A DNA stretch of 64,000 nt from an uncultured Rhodospirillaceae bacterium. GTDB taxonomy: Bacteria > Pseudomonadota > Alphaproteobacteria > GCA-2731375. A program made the position numbers and the translations under genes. The notes beneath the pieces are model-generated. The model did no database searches, was not told the origin of the DNA, and was given only the letters and a program-made list of their open reading frames with translations. The stretch covers positions 19,209-83,208 of the forward strand of contig CAZVYX010000003.1 of NCBI GenBank assembly GCA_964631725.1, written 5' to 3'. This document shows, piece by piece, positions 1-59,079 of this stretch; position 1 is the first letter of the stretch, and the number at the start of each line of letters is the position of its first letter.

Positions 1-766
1 GCGCCGTGGCCCAGTCGATGGTTTCGGCGATGCCGGGCAGCTTGAACAGGTCATGCTCCCTGAGACGCTGGATAAAGGCCACGACCTGGCGGCTGAGGGT
101 TTCCTCGCAGCCGGGCACCTTGGTGCGCAGGATCGCCAGCTCGCGTTCGGCATCGGGATAGTCGACCCAGTAATACAGACAGCGCCGTTTCAGGGCGTCA
201 TGGATCTCCCGCGTCCGGTTCGAGGTGACGATGACGATCGGCGGTTCGGTCGCGGCGATGGTGCCGATTTCCGGTATGGTGATCTGAAAATCCGAAAGTA
301 CTTCCAGCAGATAAGCCTCGAACGCCTCGTCTGTGCGGTCCAGCTCATCGATCAACAGCACCGGTGCGGCGCCGTCCGTGCCCACCTCCAATGCCTGCAA
401 CAAGGGCCGCTTGATCAGGAATTCGTTGCGGAAAATATCCTGGCCCAGGCGCTCCCGGTCGATCGTGCCGCTGGCCTCGGCCAGGCGGATCTCTATCATC
501 TGGCGGGCGTAGTTCCATTCATAGACGGCGGAGGCGACATCCAGGCCCTCGTAACATTGCAGGCGCACCAGGGGCCGGGACAGGGTTTCCGACAGCACCT
601 TGGCAATCTCCGTCTTGCCGACGCCGGCCTCGCCCTCCAGAAACAGCGGCCGGCCCATCTTCAGGGCCAAAAACAGCGTTGTCGCCAGGCTGCGGTCGGC
701 GATGTAGTTGCCCCGGGTCAAGAGATCCAAGGTCGCGTCAATGTCTTGCGGTATGGCTGTGCTCAT
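1..766 (-). CDS. coxD: MoxR-like AAA+ ATPase, CoxD-type accessory protein of the CO-dehydrogenase-family cluster (3' end runs off the window start)
   Basis: The reverse-strand translation reads MSTAIPQDIDATLDLLTRGNYIADRS... with a Walker A motif LEGEAGVGKT and a Walker B-like LLIDELDR. A complementary ATG lies at 764-766, and the gene sits directly downstream of coxM. The listed + strand ORF 53..898 is its antisense shadow. Confidence 0.7.
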   Translation of the reverse strand, partial: MSTAIPQDIDATLDLLTRGNYIADRSLATTLFLALKMGRPLFLEGEAGVGKTEIAKVLSETLSRPLVRLQCYEGLDVASAVYEWNYARQMIEIRLAEASGTIDRERLGQDIFRNEFLIKRPLLQALEVGTDGAAPVLLIDELDRTDEAFEAYLLEVLSDFQITIPEIGTIAATEPPIVIVTSNRTREIHDALKRRCLYYWVDYPDAERELAILRTKVPGCEETLSRQVVAFIQRLREHDLFKLPGIAETIDWATA

Positions 767-5436: not shown

Positions 5437-6318
5437 GTGCGGACGGGCCGATTGATCGCCTTGACGGGCATGCTGTTGCTTTTCTTCGCCGGCCCGGTAT
5501 CGGCGCAGGAAAGCGTAAAATTCCGTGCCGCCGGCACCCCGCCGACAGCGCTGCAGATGCGCATGGCCAAGATGCGCGGCGAAGAGGCCAAGGCGACGCC
5601 TGGTCTGCAATTGCACGGTCAACTGCATCAGCCGGCACAGGGCGACGCCCCCTATCCGGCCCTGGTCCTCCTCCATGACTGCCGCGGCATTACCGGCGCC
5701 ATCGAAGATTGGGCCCTGCAATTGGCGGATTGGGGCTACCTGGCCCTGGTAGTGGACAGCTATGGCCCCCGCCATCACAAGCCTGATTGCAGCAGCTATG
5801 ACGGCATGGAATCCGTGGATCAGACCTTCGATGCCCTGGGCGCGCTGCAATTCCTAAGCCGGCGCGATGACGTGATCAGGCATCGAATTGGCCTGATCGG
5901 CTGGTCGATCGGCGGCAGCAAGGTGCTCGCCGCAATGAACAAGATCGGCGTGCACAATCTATATCAGGAGAAATTCAGCCATGGCGTCGCCTTTTATCCC
6001 CAATGTTTGACAGCTTCCGGTCCGTTCATCGGGCCCATATTGATGCTGGTCGGGGGCGCCGACGATTGGACCAAGGCCCAGCGCTGCCAAACCCTGCGCG
6101 ATGCCAATGCCATCAGCACCCACCCGCCACGCCTGCGGATCTACCCAGCGGCCTACCATTTCTTCGATGATCCTGGCGTGGGGCCGGTAGGCTACCGGGC
6201 CGAAATCGAAAACCGCGAGAACTCACCAACCCGTGGCGCCACCTGGGGCCATGATCCGTCCGCGCAAAAGGCCGCCCTGGGCCATGTCCGGAAATTTCTG
6301 GCCCGGCAACGACCCTAG
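5437..6318 (+). CDS. dienelactone hydrolase family protein, secreted
   Basis: GTG start at 5437 with AGGAGG 5 nt upstream. It has a signal-peptide-like N-terminus LLLFFAGPVSAQE, plus LLHDCRGI and a GWSIGG nucleophile elbow. Confidence 0.65.
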   Translation: MRTGRLIALTGMLLLFFAGPVSAQESVKFRAAGTPPTALQMRMAKMRGEEAKATPGLQLHGQLHQPAQGDAPYPALVLLHDCRGITGAIEDWALQLADWGYLALVVDSYGPRHHKPDCSSYDGMESVDQTFDALGALQFLSRRDDVIRHRIGLIGWSIGGSKVLAAMNKIGVHNLYQEKFSHGVAFYPQCLTASGPFIGPILMLVGGADDWTKAQRCQTLRDANAISTHPPRLRIYPAAYHFFDDPGVGPVGYRAEIENRENSPTRGATWGHDPSAQKAALGHVRKFLARQRP

Positions 6319-6349
6319 GGCGGTTTCTGCAGTCCTAGCCCCCGATGTC

Positions 6350-6787
6350 CTAACCGTGGCGGCCATATCGGGGAAGCCAGCGTACTTTTGACGGATAGAC
6401 GTGGCGGTGCCCATGACGCCGCGCATGGCGGCGTTCCTGCCGGATCTGGCGGCGATGGGCCTTGCGGTCCTGCCGGCGATGCCAAGCCTCATGCTGGCGG
6501 CAACGACGGTGGGCCTCATGACCCGAGCGATGCTTCTTGCGCTTCAGGTAATTGTGCTGCCCGTGGCGAACCTGGTCCCGCGCCGCCATATGCCGGCCGT
6601 ACACCAGGCGGCAGGCGCCACCATCGCACTTCAGGCTGACGACCGGCGCGATATACGGGTTTGTTTGCTGATGGCGGACCGGCCAGGGGTGATGATTGCG
6701 CCCTTGGCGCCAGTCCTGCGCCTGGCCGGGGCCGGCGGTGCAGATCACGATCATTGCCGCCAGGAATGAGACGATTTGCGTTTTCAT
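6350..6787 (-). CDS. hypothetical small secreted His/Arg-rich protein
   Basis: MKTQIVSFLAAMIVICTAGPGQAQ signal peptide with GAGAGGGA upstream of the ATG. The rest is low-complexity and basic, so this could be spurious in a high-GC genome. Confidence 0.3.
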   Translation of the reverse strand: MKTQIVSFLAAMIVICTAGPGQAQDWRQGRNHHPWPVRHQQTNPYIAPVVSLKCDGGACRLVYGRHMAARDQVRHGQHNYLKRKKHRSGHEAHRRCRQHEAWHRRQDRKAHRRQIRQERRHARRHGHRHVYPSKVRWLPRYGRHG

Positions 6788-6981
6788 GATGTATCCCTCT
6801 CGGTTACTTAGTGAAAAGCCGTTAAACGATGACGGCATTTTGACCGAGGCAGCCTGAACCAAAGCTGAGGTCCGGGTTCATCTAGTGTTCAGCATTGGTC
6901 TCTTGGGAAATTGTCCGAATATTAACCATTAATTTGTACTGATACCCTGGCAAATATTGGCGCTTGAGGGATTAGTACGTC

Positions 6982-8397
6982 ATGGCGAAATACGATTACG
7001 ATATGATCTGCATCGGCAGCGGGCCGGCCGGTCAACGGGCCGCCGTGCAAGGCGCCAAGCTGGGCAAGCGTGTCGCCATCATCGAACAGGAACAGGTGGT
7101 CGGCGGCGTCAGCCTGCACACCGGCACCATCCCCTCGAAAACCTTTCGCGAGGCGGTGCTGACATTTGGCCGTGGCGGACGGCGGGCCTCCGACATGCGG
7201 CGGCGGGCCAGCGACGGCAACGGCGTCTACCAAAAGGCGGTGACGGCGTCACAACTGTTTGAACGGGTCGGCAACATCGTGCAGCGGGAGGAACAGGTTC
7301 AGGATGCCCAGTTGGGTCGCAATGATGTCGACGTCATCGTCGGCACGGCGCAATTCAAGGGCCCGCACGAACTGTGCATCAAATCATCCATGGGCGAGCG
7401 CACTGCCACCGCCAAGAACGTCATGATCGCCGTCGGCACCAGGCCAGCGACACCCGCCAATACCAAGCTTGACGGCGAGCGGATCATTACCTCCGACGAA
7501 ATCTTCCATTTGGACGAATTGCCCCATTCCATGGTGGTCATCGGCTGCGGCGTTGTTGGTATCGAATACGCCTCGATGTTCGCCCTGCTGGGTGTCGAGG
7601 TGACGGTCGTCGATGGCCGTGGCACGCCGTTGGAGTTTCTTGACCGCGAGATTGTGGACGAACTGGTACATCAATTGCGGGCCATCAATGTGGTCTTCCG
7701 CTTGGGCGAAACCGTCGAACGGGTGGAGACGCGGGATGCGGCGCGCGGCCAGGTCGTCGTCTCGCTGGAATCCGGCAAGCGCCTGGTCGCGGATGTGGCC
7801 CTGGTCTGCGCCGGGCGGGCCGGCAATACACCCACCCTCAATCTAAAGGCGGCAAAACTGGCCACCGACGAGCGTGGGCGCTTGAGCGTCGACGATACCT
7901 TCCGCACCAAACAGAAGCATATTTTCGCCGGCGGCGATGTCATCGGCTACCCGGCCCTGGCGGCCACATCGTCGGAGCAAGGGCGCCTGGCGGCCTGCAA
8001 CGCCTTTGGCGTCAAGGTCGGGCCGATGCCGACGAACTTCCCCGTGGGCATTTATTCCATTCCCGAGATATCCATGGTCGGCGAGACCGAGCACGAGTTG
8101 ACGGCACGGAAAGTCCCCTACGAGGTCGGCATCGCGCGCTTCCGCGAAATCGCCCGTGGCCAGATTCTGGGCGATGACACCGGCTTGTTGAAACTGATTT
8201 TCCACCGCGACGATCGCAGCTTGCTCGGCGTGCACACGATCGGCACCGGCGCCACCGAACTGATCCACATCGGCCAATGCGTCATGGGATTGAACGGCGG
8301 TCTGAATTACTTCCTGGAAACCGTCTTCAACTATCCGACCCTGGCGGAATGCTACAAGGTCGCCGCCCTGGACGCCTACAATAAGCTAAACCTGTGA
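6982..8397 (+). CDS. sthA: soluble pyridine nucleotide transhydrogenase (Si-specific NAD(P)+ transhydrogenase)
   Basis: MAKYDYDMICIGSGPAGQRAAVQGAKLGKRVAIIE...GGVSLHTGTIPSKTFREAV closely parallels E. coli SthA, with the FAD GxGxxG motif and the pyridine-nucleotide-disulfide oxidoreductase fold. It contains an unusual Gly/Arg-rich insert. Confidence 0.8.
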   Translation: MAKYDYDMICIGSGPAGQRAAVQGAKLGKRVAIIEQEQVVGGVSLHTGTIPSKTFREAVLTFGRGGRRASDMRRRASDGNGVYQKAVTASQLFERVGNIVQREEQVQDAQLGRNDVDVIVGTAQFKGPHELCIKSSMGERTATAKNVMIAVGTRPATPANTKLDGERIITSDEIFHLDELPHSMVVIGCGVVGIEYASMFALLGVEVTVVDGRGTPLEFLDREIVDELVHQLRAINVVFRLGETVERVETRDAARGQVVVSLESGKRLVADVALVCAGRAGNTPTLNLKAAKLATDERGRLSVDDTFRTKQKHIFAGGDVIGYPALAATSSEQGRLAACNAFGVKVGPMPTNFPVGIYSIPEISMVGETEHELTARKVPYEVGIARFREIARGQILGDDTGLLKLIFHRDDRSLLGVHTIGTGATELIHIGQCVMGLNGGLNYFLETVFNYPTLAECYKVAALDAYNKLNL

Positions 8398-51089: not shown

Positions 51090-52787
51090 TCAATATCTTG
51101 CCGTGGCCCGCTCTATCTGCTCGATCATGATTTTGGCGAAGTCCGGGTCGTCAAAATATTCGTCATAGGCCTCTTGAATAAAGGCCAGGGTCACCGGATC
51201 GGGCAGGCCGTAATTGTTGAACGCGTTAGGCGGCTGGTCATCCCAGATCCCATCATGGCGGTAGCCCATCGCCTCCAGTAATTCGATGCCCTGCTTAGGT
51301 ATGGTCAGATCGACGACCAGGGCATCATCCGCCTCGCAGGCATCGTTTAGGGGCGGCGTATCGCCGGGGTAGTAGACGCTGGCCTGTTCGCCGCAGTAGG
51401 TCGCGCTCGATGGCGCCGCCGCGCCCCGCCCGACTGTTGAAAGCGCCAGGTTGGCGAGCACATCCTGGGTCGCGCCAAGCGCAATGCGGTCGCTTTTCTC
51501 GGCCCCGCCAAAGGCGCCAAGCGCCGTGGCGATCTGCATGTAGTGGCGCGCGGCGGAGACGTTCCGCGTCCGCGCAATGATCGCCGCCTCCTTCTTGATG
51601 CGGTCGAGAATGGCACCCTTGTTCTTGCGGATCGCCTGCATTTTGTAGCGAAGGCGCGAGACGGTGCCCGCTTCGAAGCGGGCCAGGGCATAGCGCTGTT
51701 GACGCGCCTTCCGCTTTTTCACTCCAGCATTGGACGCGGGCGCCCGCGCGGCGGTTTTGATGCCCGGCGGCTCGGCCCAGGGCGTACTTATAATTCCGCT
51801 GGGATCGTGTTTTTGCTGTCCGCCTGACGATTTTCGCCCACCGCCCGCCCGGCCGCGCCGCTTGCGTTCCCGGTATTTGGCGAAGCGCTGCAACATGGCC
51901 TGCTGGTTGCGCGCGCCGCCCGTGGCGGCCAGTTGTTTCAACTCCTCCACCGACAGCACACCCGACATATAGTCGGGTGCGTTGGGCTTCTTGATGTGGA
52001 TCGCCGCCATGTTCTTGAGCGATTTCAGGGTCTTGCGAAAATCGTCCGGAATGCACTTTTCGCCGGCCAGAACGACTTCCCGACACAGGCGCTGGGCGAC
52101 GCTGTCCCACAAATGCGCATCCTCGCAGGCAACGCCCTTTTTCTTCAGCTCGGCGCAACGGCGATGTTGCCGAAAGGAATCTTCCGGCGTTTTCGCCTTG
52201 AACGGGCCGTCGCCCCTGTTCTTGCAGGCCGAGTTGAAGGCCATCTGTGCCGGGTCGGAGGTGTCACAGGCGGTGAACGCGGCGTTGCGCCGGCCGGCAT
52301 CAATGCGGGCCTGTTCGGCGCGGCGGGCTTCTTCCGCCGCCTTGCGCCGGTTGATTTCGGCCTGACGCGCAACTTCTTCCTGCCACTTGCGTGCCGCCTC
52401 GGCCTGCAGGCGCGCCTGTTCCCGGGCCTGCTTCTGCTCGTAAGCCTGAATGCGCTGGCGATGCGCCGCGGCCTTTTGCTCAGCCTCCGCCGCCCAGGAG
52501 CTCATCAGGCCGACAATGCCTATGACGCCGGTTAGGGCCGACGCCGCCCTGTTTCCACCACTACCACCGCCGCTGTAAGAGCCGCCGCCGCGCCGGCCCG
52601 TGCAATAGGCCTGAATGGCATTGCGGTATTGCTGCGCCGCGGCATATTGCGCCGCCGGATTGTGGCCCCGCCGGGCATAATTCAGCGCCTGGTTCATACG
52701 GTTCCGCAATTGCGCGCAGCCCTGTTGTGCCGCTGCCGGCTCCGGCGCCAAGAGCATAGCCGCGAGCACCGCGATAGCGGCAGCCAT
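51090..52787 (-). CDS. hypothetical large secreted protein with a Gly-rich segment and a long Arg/Glu/Ala coiled coil
   Basis: Start taken at MAAAIAVLAAMLLAPEPAAAQQ. It contains GGGSYSGGGSGGN, the coiled-coil QAREQARLQAEAARKWQEEVARQAEINRRKAAEEARRAEQAR, several Cys pairs, and an acidic C-terminus. Confidence 0.5.
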   Translation of the reverse strand: MAAAIAVLAAMLLAPEPAAAQQGCAQLRNRMNQALNYARRGHNPAAQYAAAQQYRNAIQAYCTGRRGGGSYSGGGSGGNRAASALTGVIGIVGLMSSWAAEAEQKAAAHRQRIQAYEQKQAREQARLQAEAARKWQEEVARQAEINRRKAAEEARRAEQARIDAGRRNAAFTACDTSDPAQMAFNSACKNRGDGPFKAKTPEDSFRQHRRCAELKKKGVACEDAHLWDSVAQRLCREVVLAGEKCIPDDFRKTLKSLKNMAAIHIKKPNAPDYMSGVLSVEELKQLAATGGARNQQAMLQRFAKYRERKRRGRAGGGRKSSGGQQKHDPSGIISTPWAEPPGIKTAARAPASNAGVKKRKARQQRYALARFEAGTVSRLRYKMQAIRKNKGAILDRIKKEAAIIARTRNVSAARHYMQIATALGAFGGAEKSDRIALGATQDVLANLALSTVGRGAAAPSSATYCGEQASVYYPGDTPPLNDACEADDALVVDLTIPKQGIELLEAMGYRHDGIWDDQPPNAFNNYGLPDPVTLAFIQEAYDEYFDDPDFAKIMIEQIERATARY

Positions 52788-52976
52788 GGCCAACCGCCGC
52801 GCGGTTATCCCATATATTCCCCATCCGGTGATTGGCCCCTGTCCGATGCAGCGGTTCGTCATGACCAGATCCCAAGCTGCGGCATGCCACAAACAGTGAT
52901 GGATCTTACCATAATATGTTTCGCCAATGGGATTTTGCTGTGTATTTTATTACCTGCACTTGCGGAGGTCCTTGTA

Positions 52977-54248
52977 ATGTTTGGTTCCGTTGCTTACCCG
53001 CGCAAGGCCATGTTGGCTTCGGCCGCCGGGATTTACTGCCTGCTGGCGGCGTCATTTGCGTGCAGTGTTCCGGTCAAGGCGGCCGGGAATACGCCTGTGC
53101 CATCAACTACTTGGCTGCAGCTTGCCGATGCCCGCAAGGGCGCCGCCGACCGGCTGTTCCTCACGGCCATCAAGCTCTACCGCGCCGGCGATCTGGAGGG
53201 CGCGGCGGAGAATTTCGAGATGGGCCTGAGCATCGACCCCGAAAACCCCGTGGCGCATTTCTACTTTGCCGAAACCCTCAGCGACATGAAGCGGGACAAG
53301 GCCGCGCTGGCCCACTACCGAAAGGCGTCGGAACTGGCCCCCGGTTCCGAGGAAGGCATCATCGCCAACCTGAAGCTGAAGAAACTGGCGCAAAAGTTTG
53401 CGCCCGGAAAAGTGTTCAAAGACTGCGATAGCTGCCCCGAAATGGTCGTCATTCCGGCGGGATCGTTCATCATGGGTTCGAGGGAGCAAGAACGAATTTG
53501 GGCGGCCAAAAGCGCTTGGCCAGATGCCAAATACAGCTCGGAAAGGGCCTCCCATAAGCGCATGTATGACGGTATGGAATCTCCAAACCGGCGGGTCACG
53601 CTGCGCTACGCCTTCGCTATTGGTCGCTATGAAGTGACCGTCGGTCAATGGAAGGCATGCGTGGCGGCGGCTAAATGCAAGGAACTGCCGAAAGATTTCG
53701 ACTATAGGGGCAAACCGGTCCAAAGACCCGACGATGTCGCGGTTCATAAAGTGAGTTGGAACGGCGTCAAATCATACCTGCAATGGCTCAGCCTGAAGAC
53801 CGGCCTACGTTATCGATTACCAAGCGAATCCGAGTGGGAATATATGGCGCGCGCCGGCACCACGACAGCCTTCAATTTCGGGCAGAACATCGATGTCAGC
53901 CAAGCGCATTTCTCGGATGTCTATGGCGGAATAAGCCATTACGCACCGATTTCGGTCGGGCGGTACCAAGCCAACGCATTTGGTGTTTACGACGTACATG
54001 GAAACGTTGCCGAAATAACCGAGGATTGTCAGGGCGCGTATGGCAGCGTGCCGTCAGACGGCAGCGCACATACGCCGTCGGGATCCTATAGCAATTGCCA
54101 TGCCAGAATGACGCGCGGTGGTTCCTTTTCCGACGGCCGGCACGCAGTCCGATCGGCGGCACGCGGCGTTACGATGGTCCTGGGCCTTGACGGCAAAGAC
54201 TTCCATGCAATTGGTTTGGGCTTCCGCGTGACGCGAGATTTGGATTGA
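52977..54248 (+). CDS. secreted TPR-repeat protein fused to an FGE-sulfatase (SUMF1/formylglycine-generating-enzyme-like) domain
   Basis: GGAGG RBS, signal peptide MFGSVAYPRKAMLASAAGIYCLLAASFA, and a TPR-like module LQLADARKGAADRLFLTAIKLYRAGDLEGAAENFEMGLSIDPENPVAHFYFAETL. Then VVIPAGSFIMGS...YRLPSESEWEYMARAG...RGGSF, the FGE-sulfatase fold. Confidence 0.7.
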   Translation: MFGSVAYPRKAMLASAAGIYCLLAASFACSVPVKAAGNTPVPSTTWLQLADARKGAADRLFLTAIKLYRAGDLEGAAENFEMGLSIDPENPVAHFYFAETLSDMKRDKAALAHYRKASELAPGSEEGIIANLKLKKLAQKFAPGKVFKDCDSCPEMVVIPAGSFIMGSREQERIWAAKSAWPDAKYSSERASHKRMYDGMESPNRRVTLRYAFAIGRYEVTVGQWKACVAAAKCKELPKDFDYRGKPVQRPDDVAVHKVSWNGVKSYLQWLSLKTGLRYRLPSESEWEYMARAGTTTAFNFGQNIDVSQAHFSDVYGGISHYAPISVGRYQANAFGVYDVHGNVAEITEDCQGAYGSVPSDGSAHTPSGSYSNCHARMTRGGSFSDGRHAVRSAARGVTMVLGLDGKDFHAIGLGFRVTRDLD

Positions 54249-54256
54249 GGTTCGAA

Positions 54257-55291
54257 ATGAAACGAACCAGACCATACAGATGTATTTCAGCAGCGCTCTC
54301 GGTTTTGCTTGCCATAACGGTTCTTGGCTCCGCCCAGGCCCGTGATCCAAAGACGTCCCGATTCCTGCAACTGGCCGATGCGAAGTCAGAGGCGGCAGAT
54401 CAGGTCTTTCTGGAGGCCGTGAAGCTCTACCGCGCCGGTGATCTGGCCGGCGCGGTGGAACAGTTCGAACTGGGCCTGTCGATCGACCCCAATAATGCCG
54501 CCGGGCATTTCTACCTGGCCAAGACTTATGATGGCCTGAAGCGCCGCAACGATGCGTTGATCCACTATCGGAAGGCGGCTGAACTTGGCCCCGGCACCAA
54601 GGAAGGCATTATTGCGGCGGCAACTGTAAAGAGCCTCGAGAAGAAGCTTCGGGATAAGGCCGCCGCCGAACAGAAACGCGTCGAGGAAGAGCGGAAACGG
54701 AAGGAGGTCTCGGCGCTGCTCAGCACGGAAAATATCGACCGCTGTTACAAGAACAAGCAACCGAAAACCATGCTGCAAGGCTGCAATGCCTTGATTCGCT
54801 ATTACTCGGCCAAGAACGAGATGACGCCTGATCCTATGCACATGTTCAGTTTGGCCGGAGCCATTCTACAGCGGGCCATCGCCCATGGACACAACCGCGA
54901 CTGGAGCGCCGCCATTGACGATTTCGAACAGGTCATCGCGATACGCAAGCCTGTCATCATGGATAGCGAGTTCAAGACAAACAATGCCAATTCGCTTGTC
55001 AGCGCAACCAATGGACTGGCCTGGCTGCGCGCCACCTGTCCGGATGGTCGTTATCGCTCAGGCGCCGAGGCGGTTCGTCTTGCGGCCGAGGCGGTACGCA
55101 TGCGGCCCTGGCCGGAATATCGCGACACCCTGGCCGCCGCCTATGCCGAGGCCGGTCGGTTCGAGGATGCCGCCAGTGAGCAGGAAGCCGCGATTGCCAT
55201 GCTCAACGACAGAGGCAAACAATTGTATCTGAAGAAATTCCGGGCCCGATTGGCCCTCTATCGTCAGGGGAAACCGTATCGAGCTCCATAA
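54257..55291 (+). CDS. secreted TPR-repeat protein, paralog 2 of the tandem array
   Basis: Signal peptide ISAALSVLLAITVLGSAQA, then the same N-terminal TPR module (FLQLADAKSEAADQVFLEAVKLYRAGDLAGA). The C-terminus ends in ARLALYRQGKPYRAP. Confidence 0.6.
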   Translation: MKRTRPYRCISAALSVLLAITVLGSAQARDPKTSRFLQLADAKSEAADQVFLEAVKLYRAGDLAGAVEQFELGLSIDPNNAAGHFYLAKTYDGLKRRNDALIHYRKAAELGPGTKEGIIAAATVKSLEKKLRDKAAAEQKRVEEERKRKEVSALLSTENIDRCYKNKQPKTMLQGCNALIRYYSAKNEMTPDPMHMFSLAGAILQRAIAHGHNRDWSAAIDDFEQVIAIRKPVIMDSEFKTNNANSLVSATNGLAWLRATCPDGRYRSGAEAVRLAAEAVRMRPWPEYRDTLAAAYAEAGRFEDAASEQEAAIAMLNDRGKQLYLKKFRARLALYRQGKPYRAP

Positions 55292-55717
55292 TGGCCAAGG
55301 TAAGCTGATCCAGCCTGGGCGAACGATGATGCATTGAGATCTGATATGACACGCGCATTGACATACCGATTGCCGTTGACACTGCTTGGTGTTTTTCTTG
55401 TTCTCGCCCTCCATGCTCCCGCCAATGCCGGCGATCCGCAGGCGCCCGTGGTCCTGCAAGTCGCGGACGCGCGGTCGGAGGCGGCGGACCGCTTCTTCCT
55501 CAAGGCGGTGAAGCTGTATCGCTCCGGCGATCTGACGGGTGCGGCGGAGCAGTTCAAGCTTGGTCTGAGCATCAATCCGGAGAACCCGGTGGCGCACTAC
55601 TATTACGCCGAAACCCTGAAGGCCATGCAGCGCGAGGCGGAGGCCCTGGCGCATTACGAAAAAGCGGCGAAATTCGGCCCTGACACCACCGAAGGCATCA
55701 TGGCGGCGGCGGTCATG
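55260..55717 (+). repeat. direct repeat copy 1 (~458 bp), spanning gene end, intergenic spacer and 5' end of the next TPR gene
   Basis: tcgtcaggggaaaccgtatcgagctccataatggccaaggtaagctgatccagcctgggcgaacgatgatgcattgagatctgatatgacacgcgcattgacataccg... recurs at 56337. The first ~220 bp match exactly and the rest shows scattered mismatches. The repeat period is 1077 bp. Confidence 0.85.
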
Positions 55718-56368
55718 CCAGGGCTCAGGCGTAAGGTCGAGGCGACCGAAAAGAAGAAAACGGAAAGGAAAGCGGAAAAAAAGGCCGCCGCCGAGAAGGT
55801 TCATTGCTCGCCTTTCGCTACCGGCACGACAGATGTGATCAAGGTGTGCAGTGAAAAAATTCGAGCCTTTGCGGAGCAACAAGTGAATCCGTCGAAGTTC
55901 ATGTTCAAGGATCCGGCCTACATGGGTGCCGACTATCACACTATCCGCGCAAATGCATACTTCCGGAACGGCAATTTTTCTGCTGCTGTTCGTGACTTCG
56001 AGAGATCCATGGATTTGGAGAAACAGGTCGTTTGGGAAAACTACCCAGGATTAGCGACTCCAGATATGACGCGTTGGGAAGCGCTCAGGGGATTCGCCTG
56101 GCTGCGGGCGACCTGTCGGGACAAACGTTACCGCTCGGGCGCTGACGCGGTTCGCCTCGCCCTTGAAGCCGTTCGTATGCACCGCTGGCCGCAAGCGCAA
56201 GATACCCTGGCCGCCGCCTACGCCGAAGCCGGTCGGTTCGGGGATGCCGTCAGGGAGCAGCAAGCGGCGATTGCAAACCTTTCCGATTCCGGCAAACAAC
56301 AATTCTTGAAACAATTCCAGGCTCGATTGGCCCTCTATCGTCAGGGGAAACCGTATCGAGCTCCATAA
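55346..56368 (+). CDS. secreted TPR-repeat protein, paralog 3
   Basis: MTRALTYRLPLTLLGVFLVLALHAPANA signal, a TPR module, and the same ...ARLALYRQGKPYRAP end. The 5' part lies within direct repeat copy 1. Confidence 0.6.
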   Translation: MTRALTYRLPLTLLGVFLVLALHAPANAGDPQAPVVLQVADARSEAADRFFLKAVKLYRSGDLTGAAEQFKLGLSINPENPVAHYYYAETLKAMQREAEALAHYEKAAKFGPDTTEGIMAAAVMPGLRRKVEATEKKKTERKAEKKAAAEKVHCSPFATGTTDVIKVCSEKIRAFAEQQVNPSKFMFKDPAYMGADYHTIRANAYFRNGNFSAAVRDFERSMDLEKQVVWENYPGLATPDMTRWEALRGFAWLRATCRDKRYRSGADAVRLALEAVRMHRWPQAQDTLAAAYAEAGRFGDAVREQQAAIANLSDSGKQQFLKQFQARLALYRQGKPYRAP

Positions 56369-56794
56369 TGGCCAAGGTAAGCTGATCCAGCCTGGGCGAA
56401 CGATGATGCATTGAGATCTGATATGACACGCGCATTGACATACCGATTGCCGTTGACACTGCTTGGTGTTTTTCTTGTTCTCGCCCTCCATGCTCCCGCC
56501 AATGCCGGCGATCCGCAGGCGCCCGTGGTCCTGCAACTGGCCGACGCGCGATCCGAAGCGGCGGACCGCTTCTTCCTCAAGGCGGTGCAGCTGTACCGGG
56601 CCGGCGATCTGACGGGCGCGGCGGAGCAGTTCGAGTTTGGCCTGAGCATCAATCCGGAGAACCCGGTGGCGCACTACTATTACGCCGAGACCCTGAAGGC
56701 CATGCAACGCGAGGCGGAGGCCCTGGCCCATTACGAAAAAGCGGCGAAATTCGGCCCCGACACCACCGAAGGCATCATGGCGGCGGCGGTCATA
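56337..56794 (+). repeat. direct repeat copy 2
   Basis: Same as copy 1. The identical 103-aa minus-strand ORFs 55264..55575 and 56341..56652 in the ORF track are by-products of this repeat. Confidence 0.85.
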
Positions 56795-57499
56795 ACAAAG
56801 CTCAAGCGCAAGGTAGACGCGGCCAAGGCGGCGCAAGACGCCAAAACGCGGGCGCAAGCCGATATCGCCGATGAAAAGGCGTGCGAGGATTGGGAATCGA
56901 CGCCAAGCCGGCGGAACCAAGGCTGTACGGCGGTCATCGTGAAACTTTCAGCCCCGCCGATTACTGCTTTGAAAGACTTGGCGGTGGCATTGTGGCGACG
57001 GGCCTCCAACCAAGCTCTACTCGGCAAATGCGCGGCGGCTGTCAAAGATCTAGTGCGGGCGCGTAATCTATTGCTTGAGCTGACAAAGGGAAAACCCCGC
57101 CAAGACAACTTTGACTACCTTACTCTCGAAGATGTCACTATTGGCCTCACAAATGTCCTAACGACGTCACCGCGCCGCCAATGCAGGTCGGGAAAGGAAG
57201 CTTTGCGATTGGCCGCGGAGTTCCCAATTTTCCGCGATGACAAGACGGAGCGACATCATAGGGCCCTGGCGCCCATCTATGCGGAAGTCGGACAATTCGA
57301 CCGCGCCATACAAGAGCAGGAAGCAGCCATAGAATCGCGGAAGCAATTCTTCAAGGAAGTGTCCTGGTCCAAGGCCGATATGAAAACAGTTCTTGATAGC
57401 ATGCAGCAAGTTTTGGAAGTCCTGCGAAAACATAAGCCAATCCGATATTGCAAGATGGCGGAAAAGCAATTTACAGAACTCTGCGACGGGATCGATTAG
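56423..57499 (+). CDS. secreted TPR-repeat protein, paralog 4 (divergent C-terminal half)
   Basis: The first ~150 codons are near-identical to paralog 3 at the DNA level. The C-terminal half is different (…KPIRYCKMAEKQFTELCDGID). Confidence 0.6.
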   Translation: MTRALTYRLPLTLLGVFLVLALHAPANAGDPQAPVVLQLADARSEAADRFFLKAVQLYRAGDLTGAAEQFEFGLSINPENPVAHYYYAETLKAMQREAEALAHYEKAAKFGPDTTEGIMAAAVITKLKRKVDAAKAAQDAKTRAQADIADEKACEDWESTPSRRNQGCTAVIVKLSAPPITALKDLAVALWRRASNQALLGKCAAAVKDLVRARNLLLELTKGKPRQDNFDYLTLEDVTIGLTNVLTTSPRRQCRSGKEALRLAAEFPIFRDDKTERHHRALAPIYAEVGQFDRAIQEQEAAIESRKQFFKEVSWSKADMKTVLDSMQQVLEVLRKHKPIRYCKMAEKQFTELCDGID

Positions 57500-57512: not shown

Positions 57513-58478
57513 TCAGGCGGTCTTGGCGTTGCGTTCAGTGAAATGGCACAGGCCCAGCAGGGCGCGGGCCTCGTCCTCGACGGCTGCGGGCCGGTGGATG
57601 AAGCTGGCCGGGCGCGGCGCTGCCAACAGGATGCCGTCACCGTCCACGTGACAACGGATACTGTCGCAATTCATTGCCCACGCTAGTTCATCCAGCGCCT
57701 CGACAAGTCCGCTATCAGCGGCTTGGGCCGCGTCTTCCGGGTTGTCGGCGCGAACCTGGAAGTTACCAGTCAGCCCTCCACCGACTTCCGACGGCAGGTT
57801 GGCCGCCGCGATCCAGCAGGATTTGACGCCAGCGCCCAGCAAGGCCAGCCGGCCTTGTAGCGGCATTGGTGATGGCAACGCGGCCAGGAAACCCTCGAAC
57901 ACGGTCTCATCGTCGCCGTCGGGCCAGATCATGCTCAGTTCGACGTCGGCAATCTCGCAGGCGCTACCGTTCGAACCCCGGCGGAACAGTGCGCGGCACC
58001 GGGGCTGGGCAAATTCCGCCACCAGCCCGGCCCTGAAAAAAGATGTTGCGTCAAAATCCTTCCCACTGCCGATTTCGTACCGCCAGCCGGGCCGGAACGC
58101 GGCAATGGTGCGAAACAGCAGGGCGCGGATGTCCAGGTTCTGCCGCCGCGCCACATCCATGGCGCCCAGGCCGCCCAGGATAAGGCCGATGATGATCAGG
58201 CCGCCGCCAAGCCAAGCCAGATCGATCCGCGCGGCCAGGCCCGTATCCCCGGCCAGCATCAGCTGCCAAAACCGACCATCGAAGCGATAGACGATCCAGG
58301 CCATGGCGGCGGCAAGCCCCGCCAGCCCGCCCAGAACGATGCGCCGGATCATCGCCCCACGCCGGCGGCGGGCGGTCGGTTGCAACCGGCGCAGCTCGGG
58401 TGCGGCGATGCGCGCGAAGACCGCCGCGTAGCCCGCCTCGTGCGGCGCCCGTTCGCGAAAGCCATAGTCCTCGCTCAT
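57513..58478 (-). CDS. hypothetical membrane protein: cytoplasmic N-terminus, two TM helices, ~200-aa C-terminal domain
   Basis: Start at MSEDYGFRERAPHEAGYAAVF with AAGAGGAAG RBS. TM segments IVLGGLAGLAAAMAWIVY and LGGGLIIIGLILGGLGAM. No recognisable catalytic motif. Confidence 0.5.
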   Translation of the reverse strand: MSEDYGFRERAPHEAGYAAVFARIAAPELRRLQPTARRRRGAMIRRIVLGGLAGLAAAMAWIVYRFDGRFWQLMLAGDTGLAARIDLAWLGGGLIIIGLILGGLGAMDVARRQNLDIRALLFRTIAAFRPGWRYEIGSGKDFDATSFFRAGLVAEFAQPRCRALFRRGSNGSACEIADVELSMIWPDGDDETVFEGFLAALPSPMPLQGRLALLGAGVKSCWIAAANLPSEVGGGLTGNFQVRADNPEDAAQAADSGLVEALDELAWAMNCDSIRCHVDGDGILLAAPRPASFIHRPAAVEDEARALLGLCHFTERNAKTA

Positions 58479-58581
58479 GGCATCTTCCTCTTTCCGCCCG
58501 ACGGGTGGGACCGATTGTCCTCGCATCGAAACAGCGAAAGCAGGCGCGGCCATTGTCCCACCCGCGCGCGTCGCGACGCAA

Positions 58582-59079
58582 CTAGCCCGGGTCGATTTCC
58601 TGGAACACCCCCAAATTCCTCGCAACCTGGAAATAACCCTCGATATCGAACCTTGCTGACAGGTTCACAGAGGCGATCCGTTCCAGGGCGTCGAAATCGT
58701 CGGAACCGAACGTCAAGTCGGACCCCGGCAGTTCCGCCTTGGCGCGCATCTCGATCGGTCCGGTTCGTGTCGTCCCGCCGCCCTCAAGAAACCTGGTCGG
58801 AAAGCTCAATTGCAGCACCGGCAGTTCGTCCCCCTTACTGTCGATTGGCGCGGCATATTGGCTGCCCAGGATCAGGAGAGCCGGATCCCTGAACGCGATT
58901 CTCGGTTGCGACAGCCCCGGCATGCCAGTGTTGTCCTGCTCCGGCGCGGTGTTGTGAAGGATATAATCGATCGTGAAGGTCTCGCCGACATTGATCGAGC
59001 GGTCGAACCCGACCGCGCTGGTCTCGGCGGTCAGGTCGAGATAGCTTCTGGCCTCCGCCCATAATGAATACATCTGCAT
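58582..59079 (-). CDS. hypothetical soluble protein (~165 aa), upstream partner of the membrane protein
   Basis: MQMYSLWAEARSYLDLTAETSAVGFDRSINVGETFTIDYILHNTAP... with GGGAGAAA RBS; no known motif. Confidence 0.45.
   Translation of the reverse strand: MQMYSLWAEARSYLDLTAETSAVGFDRSINVGETFTIDYILHNTAPEQDNTGMPGLSQPRIAFRDPALLILGSQYAAPIDSKGDELPVLQLSFPTRFLEGGGTTRTGPIEMRAKAELPGSDLTFGSDDFDALERIASVNLSARFDIEGYFQVARNLGVFQEIDPG

Follow-up and report, generated by a model that had tools for sequence, protein, structure and literature searches.

How did two stretches of nearly identical DNA come to lie exactly 1077 bp apart in an array of genes that are otherwise very diverged? The original prediction read them as evidence of a very recent tandem gene duplication or gene conversion. 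We examined this question in a window of 64 kb, meaning the whole stretch of DNA that was analysed, from an uncultured marine alphaproteobacterium; all positions are counted from its first letter. The repeat is probably a short and very recent tract of ectopic gene conversion or crossover, nested in an older exchange of N-terminal modules between old paralogues.

A four-gene array and its layered repeat

Four old paralogues, g1 to g4, form a co-oriented array at this locus and encode secreted TPR proteins of an uncharacterised family. The genes and the copies of their shared N-terminal module are located as follows:

52977..54248, + strand: g1, secreted TPR N-module plus FGE-sulfatase (PvdO-like) domain, with the start taken from the public gene call
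54257..55291, + strand: g2, secreted TPR protein of 344 aa, an open reading frame whose 3' end and following spacer form repeat copy 1
55346..56368, + strand: g3, secreted TPR protein of 340 aa, mosaic
56423..57499, + strand: g4, secreted TPR protein of 358 aa
53115..53365, + strand: N-terminal TPR module of g1, the reference copy of a four-member family (family D1 of the repeat search)
54365-54615, 55454-55704 and 56531-56781: the other copies of the N-module, 70-73% identical to the g1 copy

The Pfam model TPR_2 (cutoff 27 bits) matched g2 with 47.6, g3 with 54.3 and g1 with 30.8 bits, and g4 passed Pfam cutoffs through TPR_19 (30.9 against 25 bits) and TPR_14 (27.4 against 23.5 bits). The FGE-sulfatase domain of g1 scored 124.9 bits with PF03781, for which the cutoff is 23.3, and the nearest solved structure to g1 is PvdO (5hha, E = 1.5e-35). 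The assignment of g1 as an equivalog of PvdO, a dihydropyoverdine dehydrogenase, was rejected at 176.5 bits with NCBIfam NF051459, below the cutoff of 500, and g1 belongs to the broader FGE-sulfatase fold only. The public call of this gene is P0125 (423 aa); an alternative ATG is present at 53010. The g2 protein occurs in public collections as the exact entries P0124 and P0003, the g3 protein has exact matches on 10 public contigs, and g4 is identical to P0002 and occurs on 11 contigs. The 90% protein cluster to which g3 belongs is represented by a 144-aa fragment, which explains why g3 at first seemed to be missing among database proteins.

The two repeats of about 458 bp with a period of 1077 bp that had been described for this locus were recovered. 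Positions 55260-55717 and 56337-56794 align without gaps at 95.9% identity, with 19 differences in 458 bp. Their first part is indeed perfectly identical, but the perfect stretch had been put at about 220 bp, and from 55260 it extends over only 200 bp (to 55459). The full perfect run, here called R, is 213 bp long and occupies 55247-55459 and again 56324-56536, at an offset of 1077 bp. Its content agrees with the earlier description: the end of one gene (...ARLALYRQGKPYRAP and stop), the 54-bp spacer, and the codons for the signal peptide of the gene that follows. The spacer between g1 and g2 is 8 bp, unlike the 54-bp spacer that follows g2 and g3. Within the 64-kb window, no second repeat of this size was found. 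The core and the layers of lower identity on its two sides are arranged as follows:

55247..55459, + strand: R copy 1, comprising the last 14 codons and stop of g2, the 54-bp spacer and codons 1-38 of g3 (signal peptide)
56324..56536, + strand: R copy 2, comprising the last 14 codons and stop of g3, the spacer and codons 1-38 of g4
55460..55744, + strand: intermediate layer copy 1, codons 39-133 of g3 (TPR N-module), 90.9% identical to 56537-56821
56537..56821, + strand: intermediate layer copy 2, codons 39-133 of g4
55013..55246, + strand: old layer copy 1, conserved C-terminal domain of g2, 74% identical to 56090-56323
56090..56323, + strand: old layer copy 2, conserved C-terminal domain of g3
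55247..56323, + strand: the 1077-bp unit (R plus g3-specific sequence), which is missing from the three-gene contigs L001/L013, L005 and L016

The 5' layer (55013-55246 against 56090-56323) carries 60 differences in 234 bp without gaps, and the 3' layer (55460-55744 against 56537-56821) carries 26 in 285 bp. Outside the layers, identity falls to 26-32%, matching that at 399 other offsets (mean 0.263, maximum 0.332). The body of g3 (345 bp, 55745-56089) has 32% and 26% identity to the bodies of g2 and g4, which is the random level. The proteins show the same mosaic structure. The signal peptide of g3 is 100% and its N-module 92% identical to those of g4, while its C-terminus and tail are 74% and 94% identical to those of g2, and its body shares only 18-25% amino-acid identity with either neighbour.

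Age of the layers and origin of the repeat

In the 3' layer between g3 and g4, 15 synonymous and 11 non-synonymous differences give a dS of 0.257 and a dN of 0.053, and in the 5' layer between the C-termini of g2 and g3, dS is 0.92 and dN 0.19. The remaining N-module pairs, which are old paralogues, have dS values of 0.9-1.8, a range that takes in the 5' layer. Within R, none of about 44 synonymous sites and none of the 54 non-coding bases differ, for which the chance at the rate of the 3' flank is 1.4e-9; this comparison of ages between the core and the 3' layer is based on 26 substitutions. All 26 differences of the 498-bp layer shared by g3 and g4 lie in its last 285 bp (P = 5e-7). When the 86 differences were permuted over 732 sites, an identical run of at least 213 bases arose in 0 of 200,000 permutations, and the analytic estimate is ~1e-11.

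R thus has the sharp boundaries expected of a conversion tract, with 213 bp at 100% between flanks of 74% and 91%, and it is homogenised at synonymous and non-coding sites alike. These results bear out the earlier suggestion that the gene junctions were homogenised by gene conversion or unequal crossing-over: a 213-bp tract free of silent and non-coding differences lies between flanks with dS of 0.26 and 0.92. The 74% stretch on the 5' side of R reflects ordinary paralogy of old date, in a C-terminal domain under constraint.

The most plausible process is RecA-type, homology-dependent ectopic recombination between neighbouring members of the array. Such recombination would have copied a junction segment, consisting of the C-terminal tail, the spacer, the signal peptide and the N-terminal TPR module, from one array position to the next. 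In bacteria, the conversion of paralogues by RecA is established and needs about 50 bp of identity (PMC8022953). At least two events appear to be recorded in the array. In the older one, the 5' 133 codons of g3 and g4 would have been made alike, and their dS is now about 0.26. The very recent event would have left the 213-bp difference-free tract, either as a gene-conversion tract or as the resolution point of a crossover, both of which fit. The data would be fitted equally by a non-reciprocal conversion and by a single crossover from which the array arose, or arose anew, and because the R copies are identical, the donor and recipient of the transfer cannot be distinguished.

Several other origins of the repeat were considered. 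A recent tandem duplication of the whole 1077-bp unit, creating g3 or g4 and followed by scattered substitutions, would account for the period of exactly 1077 bp and for copies that run gapless and in register over 55247-55744. It would also leave one level of divergence along the unit, whereas the 345 bp at 55745-56089 are random relative to both neighbours (32% and 26%), the alignable parts stand at dS 0, 0.26 and 0.92, and the bodies share 18-25% amino-acid identity. Layers of such unequal divergence speak against any recent whole-gene duplication, so that this origin is very unlikely, and the part of the original prediction that invoked a very recent tandem gene duplication is not supported: the unit is not uniform, the g3 body is at random identity to its neighbours, and the C-termini of g2 and g3 are at dS 0.92. 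We consider it just as improbable that the repeat, or its perfect identity, is an artefact of the window assembly, either as a duplicated contig end or because two slightly different copies collapsed into one consensus. Assemblies of this locus are error-prone, as shown by contigs that end 119 bases into R, a loop of 1077+119 bp and the chimeric contigs L004, L016, L029 and L030. The repeat nevertheless lies inside long contigs between diverged and unique flanks, and g3 is set apart by a 345-bp body of its own and by 26 diagnostic sites. At least 10 samples, assembled with different pipelines, separately yielded the g2-R-g3 and g3-R-g4 junctions, and R was exactly the same each time. Slightly variant g3 fragments also occur in other samples (P0122 and P0123). 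Differences between the R copies are unlikely to have been smoothed out by assemblers, because the same R is seen in the contigs of no fewer than 12 samples and three pipelines.

The remaining two origins are less probable still. In principle, 213 bp could stay identical without recombination if purifying selection acted on a functional element within them, for example a promoter, a regulatory RNA or the signal peptide, and the tract does include a spacer and the translation start for two probably co-expressed genes. Selection would not, however, freeze about 44 synonymous sites and an entire spacer beside codons at dS 0.26. The Rfam scan of R returned no family, the promoter and terminator scan gave no match in the spacer, and R folds worse than shuffled sequence (z = +1.95) and forms no stable hairpin. 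The spacer that follows the orthologue of g2 in the related organism L019 is unrelated to the R spacer and not alignable with it, and the g1-g2 spacer is different at 8 bp. Because the spacer is not conserved in L019, carries no Rfam, promoter or terminator signal and folds weakly, the identity of R reflects recency rather than constraint, and the selective explanation is highly improbable. The least probable explanation of all is that R belongs to a mobile or site-specific system for the insertion of TPR cassettes, for example an integron-like attachment site or a miniature transposable element. R and the g3 unit do behave as a presence/absence cassette in the assemblies. Nevertheless, no inverted repeats were found in or around R, a structured site is missing in that R has no stable hairpin, and no recombinase gene or domain was called among the array neighbours. 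Moreover, the copies sit at homologous in-frame positions of paralogues and grade into diverged homology on both sides.

Copy number of the unit in public assemblies

We compared the array with public contigs. The 213-bp R is unchanged in every public contig that spans the core. The g2-R-g3 junction occurs in five ENA assemblies, and the g3-R-g4 junction in four ENA, one JGI and one Logan assembly, with R identical throughout in both cases. The four-gene form is real, having been assembled independently in many samples, among them ENA ERZ23499085 and ERZ23498677 and Logan SRR8062331. A haplotype preceding the conversion was found in none of the public contigs. Exact matching of 100-nt and 40-nt pieces of R against the metagenome_contigs collection, which evidently does not contain these samples, gave no hits.

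Other contigs deviate from this form at R. L001/L013 (a 156-kb contig), L005 and L016 correspond to the window with exactly one 1077-bp unit (g3) removed; L001, L005 and L016 stem from JGI 3300007755, 3300008954 and 3300009106. Outside that unit, L001 and L005 agree with the window at 100%. The position of the junction can be anywhere inside R, and the flanks of L001 show 0 mismatches in 9,901 bp upstream and 11,176 bp downstream. L003 begins at R, and L014, L015, L017 and L018 stop at R[1..119]. L012 forms a loop of 1077+119 bp, and in L029 one g3 is joined to another through R (g3-R-g3). Chimeric ends were observed in L004, L016, L029 and L030. All four possible paths through R are present among the public contigs. 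The assembly trouble foreseen for this repeat has thus materialised, since contigs from the same population stop in R, loop on R or skip one 1077-bp unit. R is longer than the k-mers and reads of short-read assemblies, and assemblers therefore cannot route through it.

Unequal crossing-over between direct repeats leads to deletion or duplication of the sequence between them. The perfect 213-bp repeats, with 864 bp between them, would be a good substrate for this process, by which g3 could be deleted or duplicated. This raises the question of whether the copy-number differences are real, in line with the copy-number instability that the original prediction expected, with three-gene (g3-deleted) and perhaps five-gene (g3-duplicated) variants coexisting in the population. 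We regard this as possible but somewhat doubtful, and assembly errors are the more likely source of the differences among contigs. Real variants would explain why L001/L013, L005 and L016 are short of exactly one unit with the junction within R, and the g3-R-g3 junction of L029 would be the reciprocal product. The 213 bp of perfect identity far exceed the requirement of RecA of about 50 bp (PMC8022953), and a unitig assembler would probably pass R only where g3 edges are rare in the sample. On the other hand, all three g2-R-g4 contigs come from a single set of assemblies (JGI) and none from ENA re-assemblies, and in 21 kb of flank not one SNP separates L001 from the four-gene contigs. The presence of all four R paths together with half-resolved graphs is what random edge loss at k = 119 would be expected to produce, and L016 and L029 are themselves chimeric.

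Whichever source applies, the locus carries a warning: a perfect repeat of 213 bp suffices for short-read assemblies of one clonal population to disagree on gene content, giving three, four or apparently five genes with all other bases identical. Presence/absence calls at such loci should not be read as strain variation without read support. If the variants are real, the array would show, as a natural case on a small scale, unequal crossing-over still under way in a wild population.

Known systems and related loci

The phenomenon itself is ordinary: textbook recombination among tandem paralogues, here of secreted TPR proteins whose family is uncharacterised. Duplicated bacterial genes that undergo ectopic gene conversion include tufA/tufB in Salmonella and the rRNA operons of E. 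coli (PMC8022953). The array resembles these systems in its probable homology-dependent, RecA-type copying and in bounded identity tracts of tens to hundreds of bp that include silent sites (PMC8022953). The tuf and rRNA pairs, however, are dispersed, nearly identical over their full length and essential, whereas the partners in the array are adjacent, co-oriented and otherwise very diverged. The tract in the array also spans a gene junction (3' end, spacer and 5' end), while those of the tuf and rRNA genes lie in the gene interior.

A related phenomenon is concerted evolution of prokaryotic paralogues (PMC6053082), in which segments of paralogues from one genome resemble each other more than the nearest orthologue. 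For the N-module this applies to the array, where those of g3 and g4 are 92% identical, compared with 80% to that of o2, the orthologue of g2. Its genes are homogenised only in part, and the family is carried by only one or two related genomes, which falls short of a lasting, recurrent pattern across many species. Repeat-rich families of Mycobacterium tuberculosis, as these are presented in two further sources, likewise combine conversion with copy-number change at homologous repeats, which short-read assembly hides or distorts (PMC12046097, PMC13061034). The cases given there come from complete long-read isolate genomes, whereas the array is known from short-read metagenome contigs, in which true variants and artefacts look alike. 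Perfect 213-bp repeats 1077 bp apart, and contigs lacking the unit that are joined inside the repeat, are the pattern of unequal crossing-over between direct repeats; the three-gene contigs of the array may be assembly paths.

The orthologue o2 points to an older history of exchange. The N-module of o2 is 80% identical to those of g3 and g4 and just 66% identical to that of g2. This difference between o2 and g2 probably represents an older layer of module exchange. The comparison of 92% between g3 and g4 with 80% to o2 concerns the N-module; for R, L019 has no orthologous spacer that can be aligned. No orthologues of g3 or g4 were found in the protein database or in the contigs of species-representative genomes.

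A bolder, and very improbable, reading is that the junction module is a maintained recombination substrate through which the population adds, drops and reshuffles the "bodies" of secreted TPR proteins as cassettes, each placed after one shared module for export and docking. If so, the locus would be a homology-driven array with rapid variation in copy number and domain combination, the three-gene and g3-g3 contigs would be real, and the module swap between o2 and g2 would have arisen earlier in the same way.

Among the other related loci, L028 is without synteny to the array, and L027, which has a 4HBT - DUF179 - 589-aa neighbourhood, ends about 55 codons into a g2-like gene, so that neither informs on array size. 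An orthologue of g1, P0126, is labelled "Alphaproteobacteria bacterium".

Array genes and the shared junction

The repeat lies in an array of four co-oriented tandem paralogues encoding secreted TPR proteins.

Genes of the TPR array (window coordinates)
52977/53010-54248: g1, same orientation as g2-g4
54257-55291: g2, same orientation as g1, g3 and g4
55346-56368: g3, same orientation as g1, g2 and g4
56423-57499: g4, same orientation as g1-g3

All four N-termini consist of a signal-peptide-like segment and a two-repeat TPR module; the modules form a four-copy repeat family (D1), with Pfam TPR matches exceeding the cutoffs. In g1, the module is followed by an FGE-sulfatase domain (PF03781, 124.9 bits), and PvdO 5hha is the closest solved structure (E = 1.5e-35). 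Assignment of g1 as a PvdO equivalog was rejected, its score of 176 being far too low against a cutoff of 500. In g2-g4, a charged linker comes after the module, and then a second region of helical repeats. A C-terminal motif is shared by g2 and g3 (55013-55291 and 56090-56368; AWLRAT..RSG..AVRLA..DTLAAAYAEAGRF..LALYRQGKPYRAP), which no dedicated Pfam or NCBIfam model matches. The motif also closes two TPR proteins of other metagenomes that are unrelated and far longer (P0004 and P0006; 53-54% identity, 27% of the query covered). The array is flanked by two minus-strand genes without Pfam matches: one encodes 600 aa with a long charged coiled-coil-like stretch (51090-52892) and is a conserved neighbour in L027, a contig from a related organism (589 aa there), and the other encodes 321 aa (57513-58478). 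G+C content is ~54-62% in the array (53200-57400) versus ~63-70% in the flanking genes (51200-52800, 57600-58600).

Self-comparison of the window at a 1077-bp offset located the exact limits of a perfect 213-bp match, 55247-55459 = 56324-56536 (hereafter R). In each copy, the final 14 codons of one gene and its stop are followed by a 54-bp spacer and then by codons 1-38 of the next gene. On its 5' side, 55013-55246 and 56090-56323 align ungapped at 74% identity (5' layer); on its 3' side, 55460-55744 and 56537-56821 show 26 differences (90.9% identity; 3' layer). Beyond 55013-55744, identity at this offset falls to 26-32%, no different from 399 other offsets, which gave a mean of 0.263 and a maximum of 0.332. 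The original prediction of ~458-bp direct repeats was thus confirmed as to their existence, with 95.9% identity between 55260-55717 and 56337-56794 (19 differences in 458 bp); the similarity reaches farther than proposed (55013-55744), and the initial identical run of those segments is 200 bp, not ~220 bp. A 213-base identical run was reached in none of 200,000 permutations of the 86 differences, and for the 498-bp g3/g4 layer, the probability that its last 285 bp contain all 26 differences was 5e-7. No second repeat as large as R was found within the 64-kb window. A weak 42-nt inverted repeat (13948-13989/19434-19475, 79% complementary, arms 5.4 kb apart) is possibly due to chance. Two near-identical 103-aa antisense ORFs (55264-55575 and 56341-56652, minus strand) show no sign of being genes and are listed as ORFs solely through the duplication of their sequence in the repeat.

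Three layers of divergence

Synonymous and nonsynonymous divergence was estimated by the Nei-Gojobori method.

Divergence by segment
Core R (~44 synonymous sites plus 54 non-coding bases): dS 0, dN 0
g3/g4 codons 39-133: dS 0.257, dN 0.053
g2/g3 C-terminal domain: dS 0.92, dN 0.19
All remaining N-module pairs: dS 0.9-1.8

The g3 protein shares 100% of its signal peptide and 92% of its N-module with g4, its body has only 18-25% identity to g2 or g4, and its C-terminal domain and tail are 74% and 94% identical to those of g2. Judged from these comparisons, g3 is a mosaic of a g4-like start, its own body and a g2-like end. We conclude that R most probably records a very recent exchange and that the 3' layer appears to be the trace of one of intermediate age; the 5' layer, an old domain under constraint, calls for no special explanation.

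Older exchange is suggested by the related organisms. In L019, the array contains only g1-like and g2-like genes followed by a Sel1-like repeat gene, and the g1+g2 pair is the part conserved in both L019 and L027. The g2 orthologue of L019 (o2, 6077-7114) matches g2 at 71% of nucleotides in the body and 81% at the C-terminus, and its N-module is 80% identical to those of g3/g4 (55454-55717, 56531-56794) versus only 66% to that of g2 (54365-54628). The start of the N-module in the syntenic fragment L027 is of the g2 type. From these two patterns, N-modules appear to have moved earlier between family members; our confidence in this older swap is moderate, since the o2 pattern could also reflect a g2 module that has evolved faster. 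The g2-like gene of L027 (5082-5321) keeps the signal peptide and ~55 N-module codons and then, close to where the contig stops, continues into sequence of another kind, so that either the gene is truncated or the contig is chimeric.

Recombination, selection and assembly

The original prediction had offered very recent tandem duplication or gene conversion/unequal crossing-over. Very recent duplication is contradicted by the 1077-bp unit (55247-56323), which is not uniformly similar (dS 0, 0.257 and 0.92 by layer); recent duplication of the entire unit is excluded because one-third of it is unalignable and the remainder is not of a single age. Gene conversion or unequal exchange at the array junctions is supported by the silent-site identity of R against its diverged flanks. 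RecA-type ectopic recombination between neighbouring paralogues is the most probable origin of R, either as gene conversion or as a crossover resolved inside R, in line with established bacterial gene conversion (PMC8022953). Selection is very unlikely to have maintained the identity of R: it would not be expected to hold all silent sites fixed beside codons at dS 0.26, the spacer after the g2 orthologue in L019 is not conserved, R has no Rfam match, the spacer has no promoter or terminator match, and the 213-nt sequence folds worse than its shuffles (z = +1.95). An assembly artefact in the window is likewise argued against by independent assemblies: five ENA assemblies contain the g2-R-g3 junction, and four ENA, one JGI and one Logan assemblies contain the g3-R-g4 junction, all with exactly the same 213 bp, and other samples hold slightly differing g3 fragments. 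With R on either side of the g3-specific sequence, that sequence can be placed in no linear arrangement other than the four-gene order.

R is a new instance of a known phenomenon, ectopic conversion among bacterial paralogues and their concerted evolution, as in tufA/tufB and rRNA operons (PMC8022953). Concerted evolution is covered by prokaryote-wide surveys (PMC6053082), and PMC12046097 and PMC13061034 concern M. tuberculosis multigene families, in which short reads reportedly hide such events. Unlike in the known systems, the partners here are neighbours that are strongly diverged elsewhere, and the tract runs across a gene junction, giving a common predicted export signal and N-module to genes with different bodies; these differences are only of detail. 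It is highly improbable that the array is a maintained cassette-shuffling system for secreted TPR proteins.

Paths through the repeat in public contigs

Public contigs with g2, g3 or g4 were compared against the window and against the window minus 55247-56323. All four paths through R are present, the non-canonical ones being few. The three-gene version, with the junction inside R, is matched by L001/L013 (a 156-kb JGI contig), L005 and L016; L001 is free of mismatches over 9,901 bp on the upstream side and 11,176 bp on the downstream side. As anticipated, the repeat troubles assembly, and contigs break at base 119 of R, loop, or lack one 1077-bp unit: L014, L015, L017 and L018 end exactly at that base, L003 begins at the first base of R, and L012 (1196 bp = 1077 + 119) starts in R, passes through g3 and re-enters R, a pattern that we infer to reflect a de Bruijn assembler with k = 119. 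L029 (ENA ERZ23498945) joins the g3 3' end, R and the g3 5' end in its first 717 bp, with a single mismatch against the expected sequence; such a junction would result from g3 duplication (a five-gene form), from an excised circle or from mis-traversal of a loop.

Real variation in copy number is possible because the 213-bp identity gives ample recombination substrate, and we regard it as a somewhat doubtful source of these differences. Assembly path errors are their probable cause: the three g2-R-g4 contigs are all from a single set of assemblies (JGI), and chimerism is plain to see in two of the four contigs with non-canonical paths. L029 continues past an A-rich run into unrelated AT-rich sequence (718-905), and unrelated ends also occur in L004 (1-253, where a DUF721-like ORF is fused into the g2 N-module), L016 (1-115) and L030 (1-75); these four contigs are probably inter-genome chimeras.
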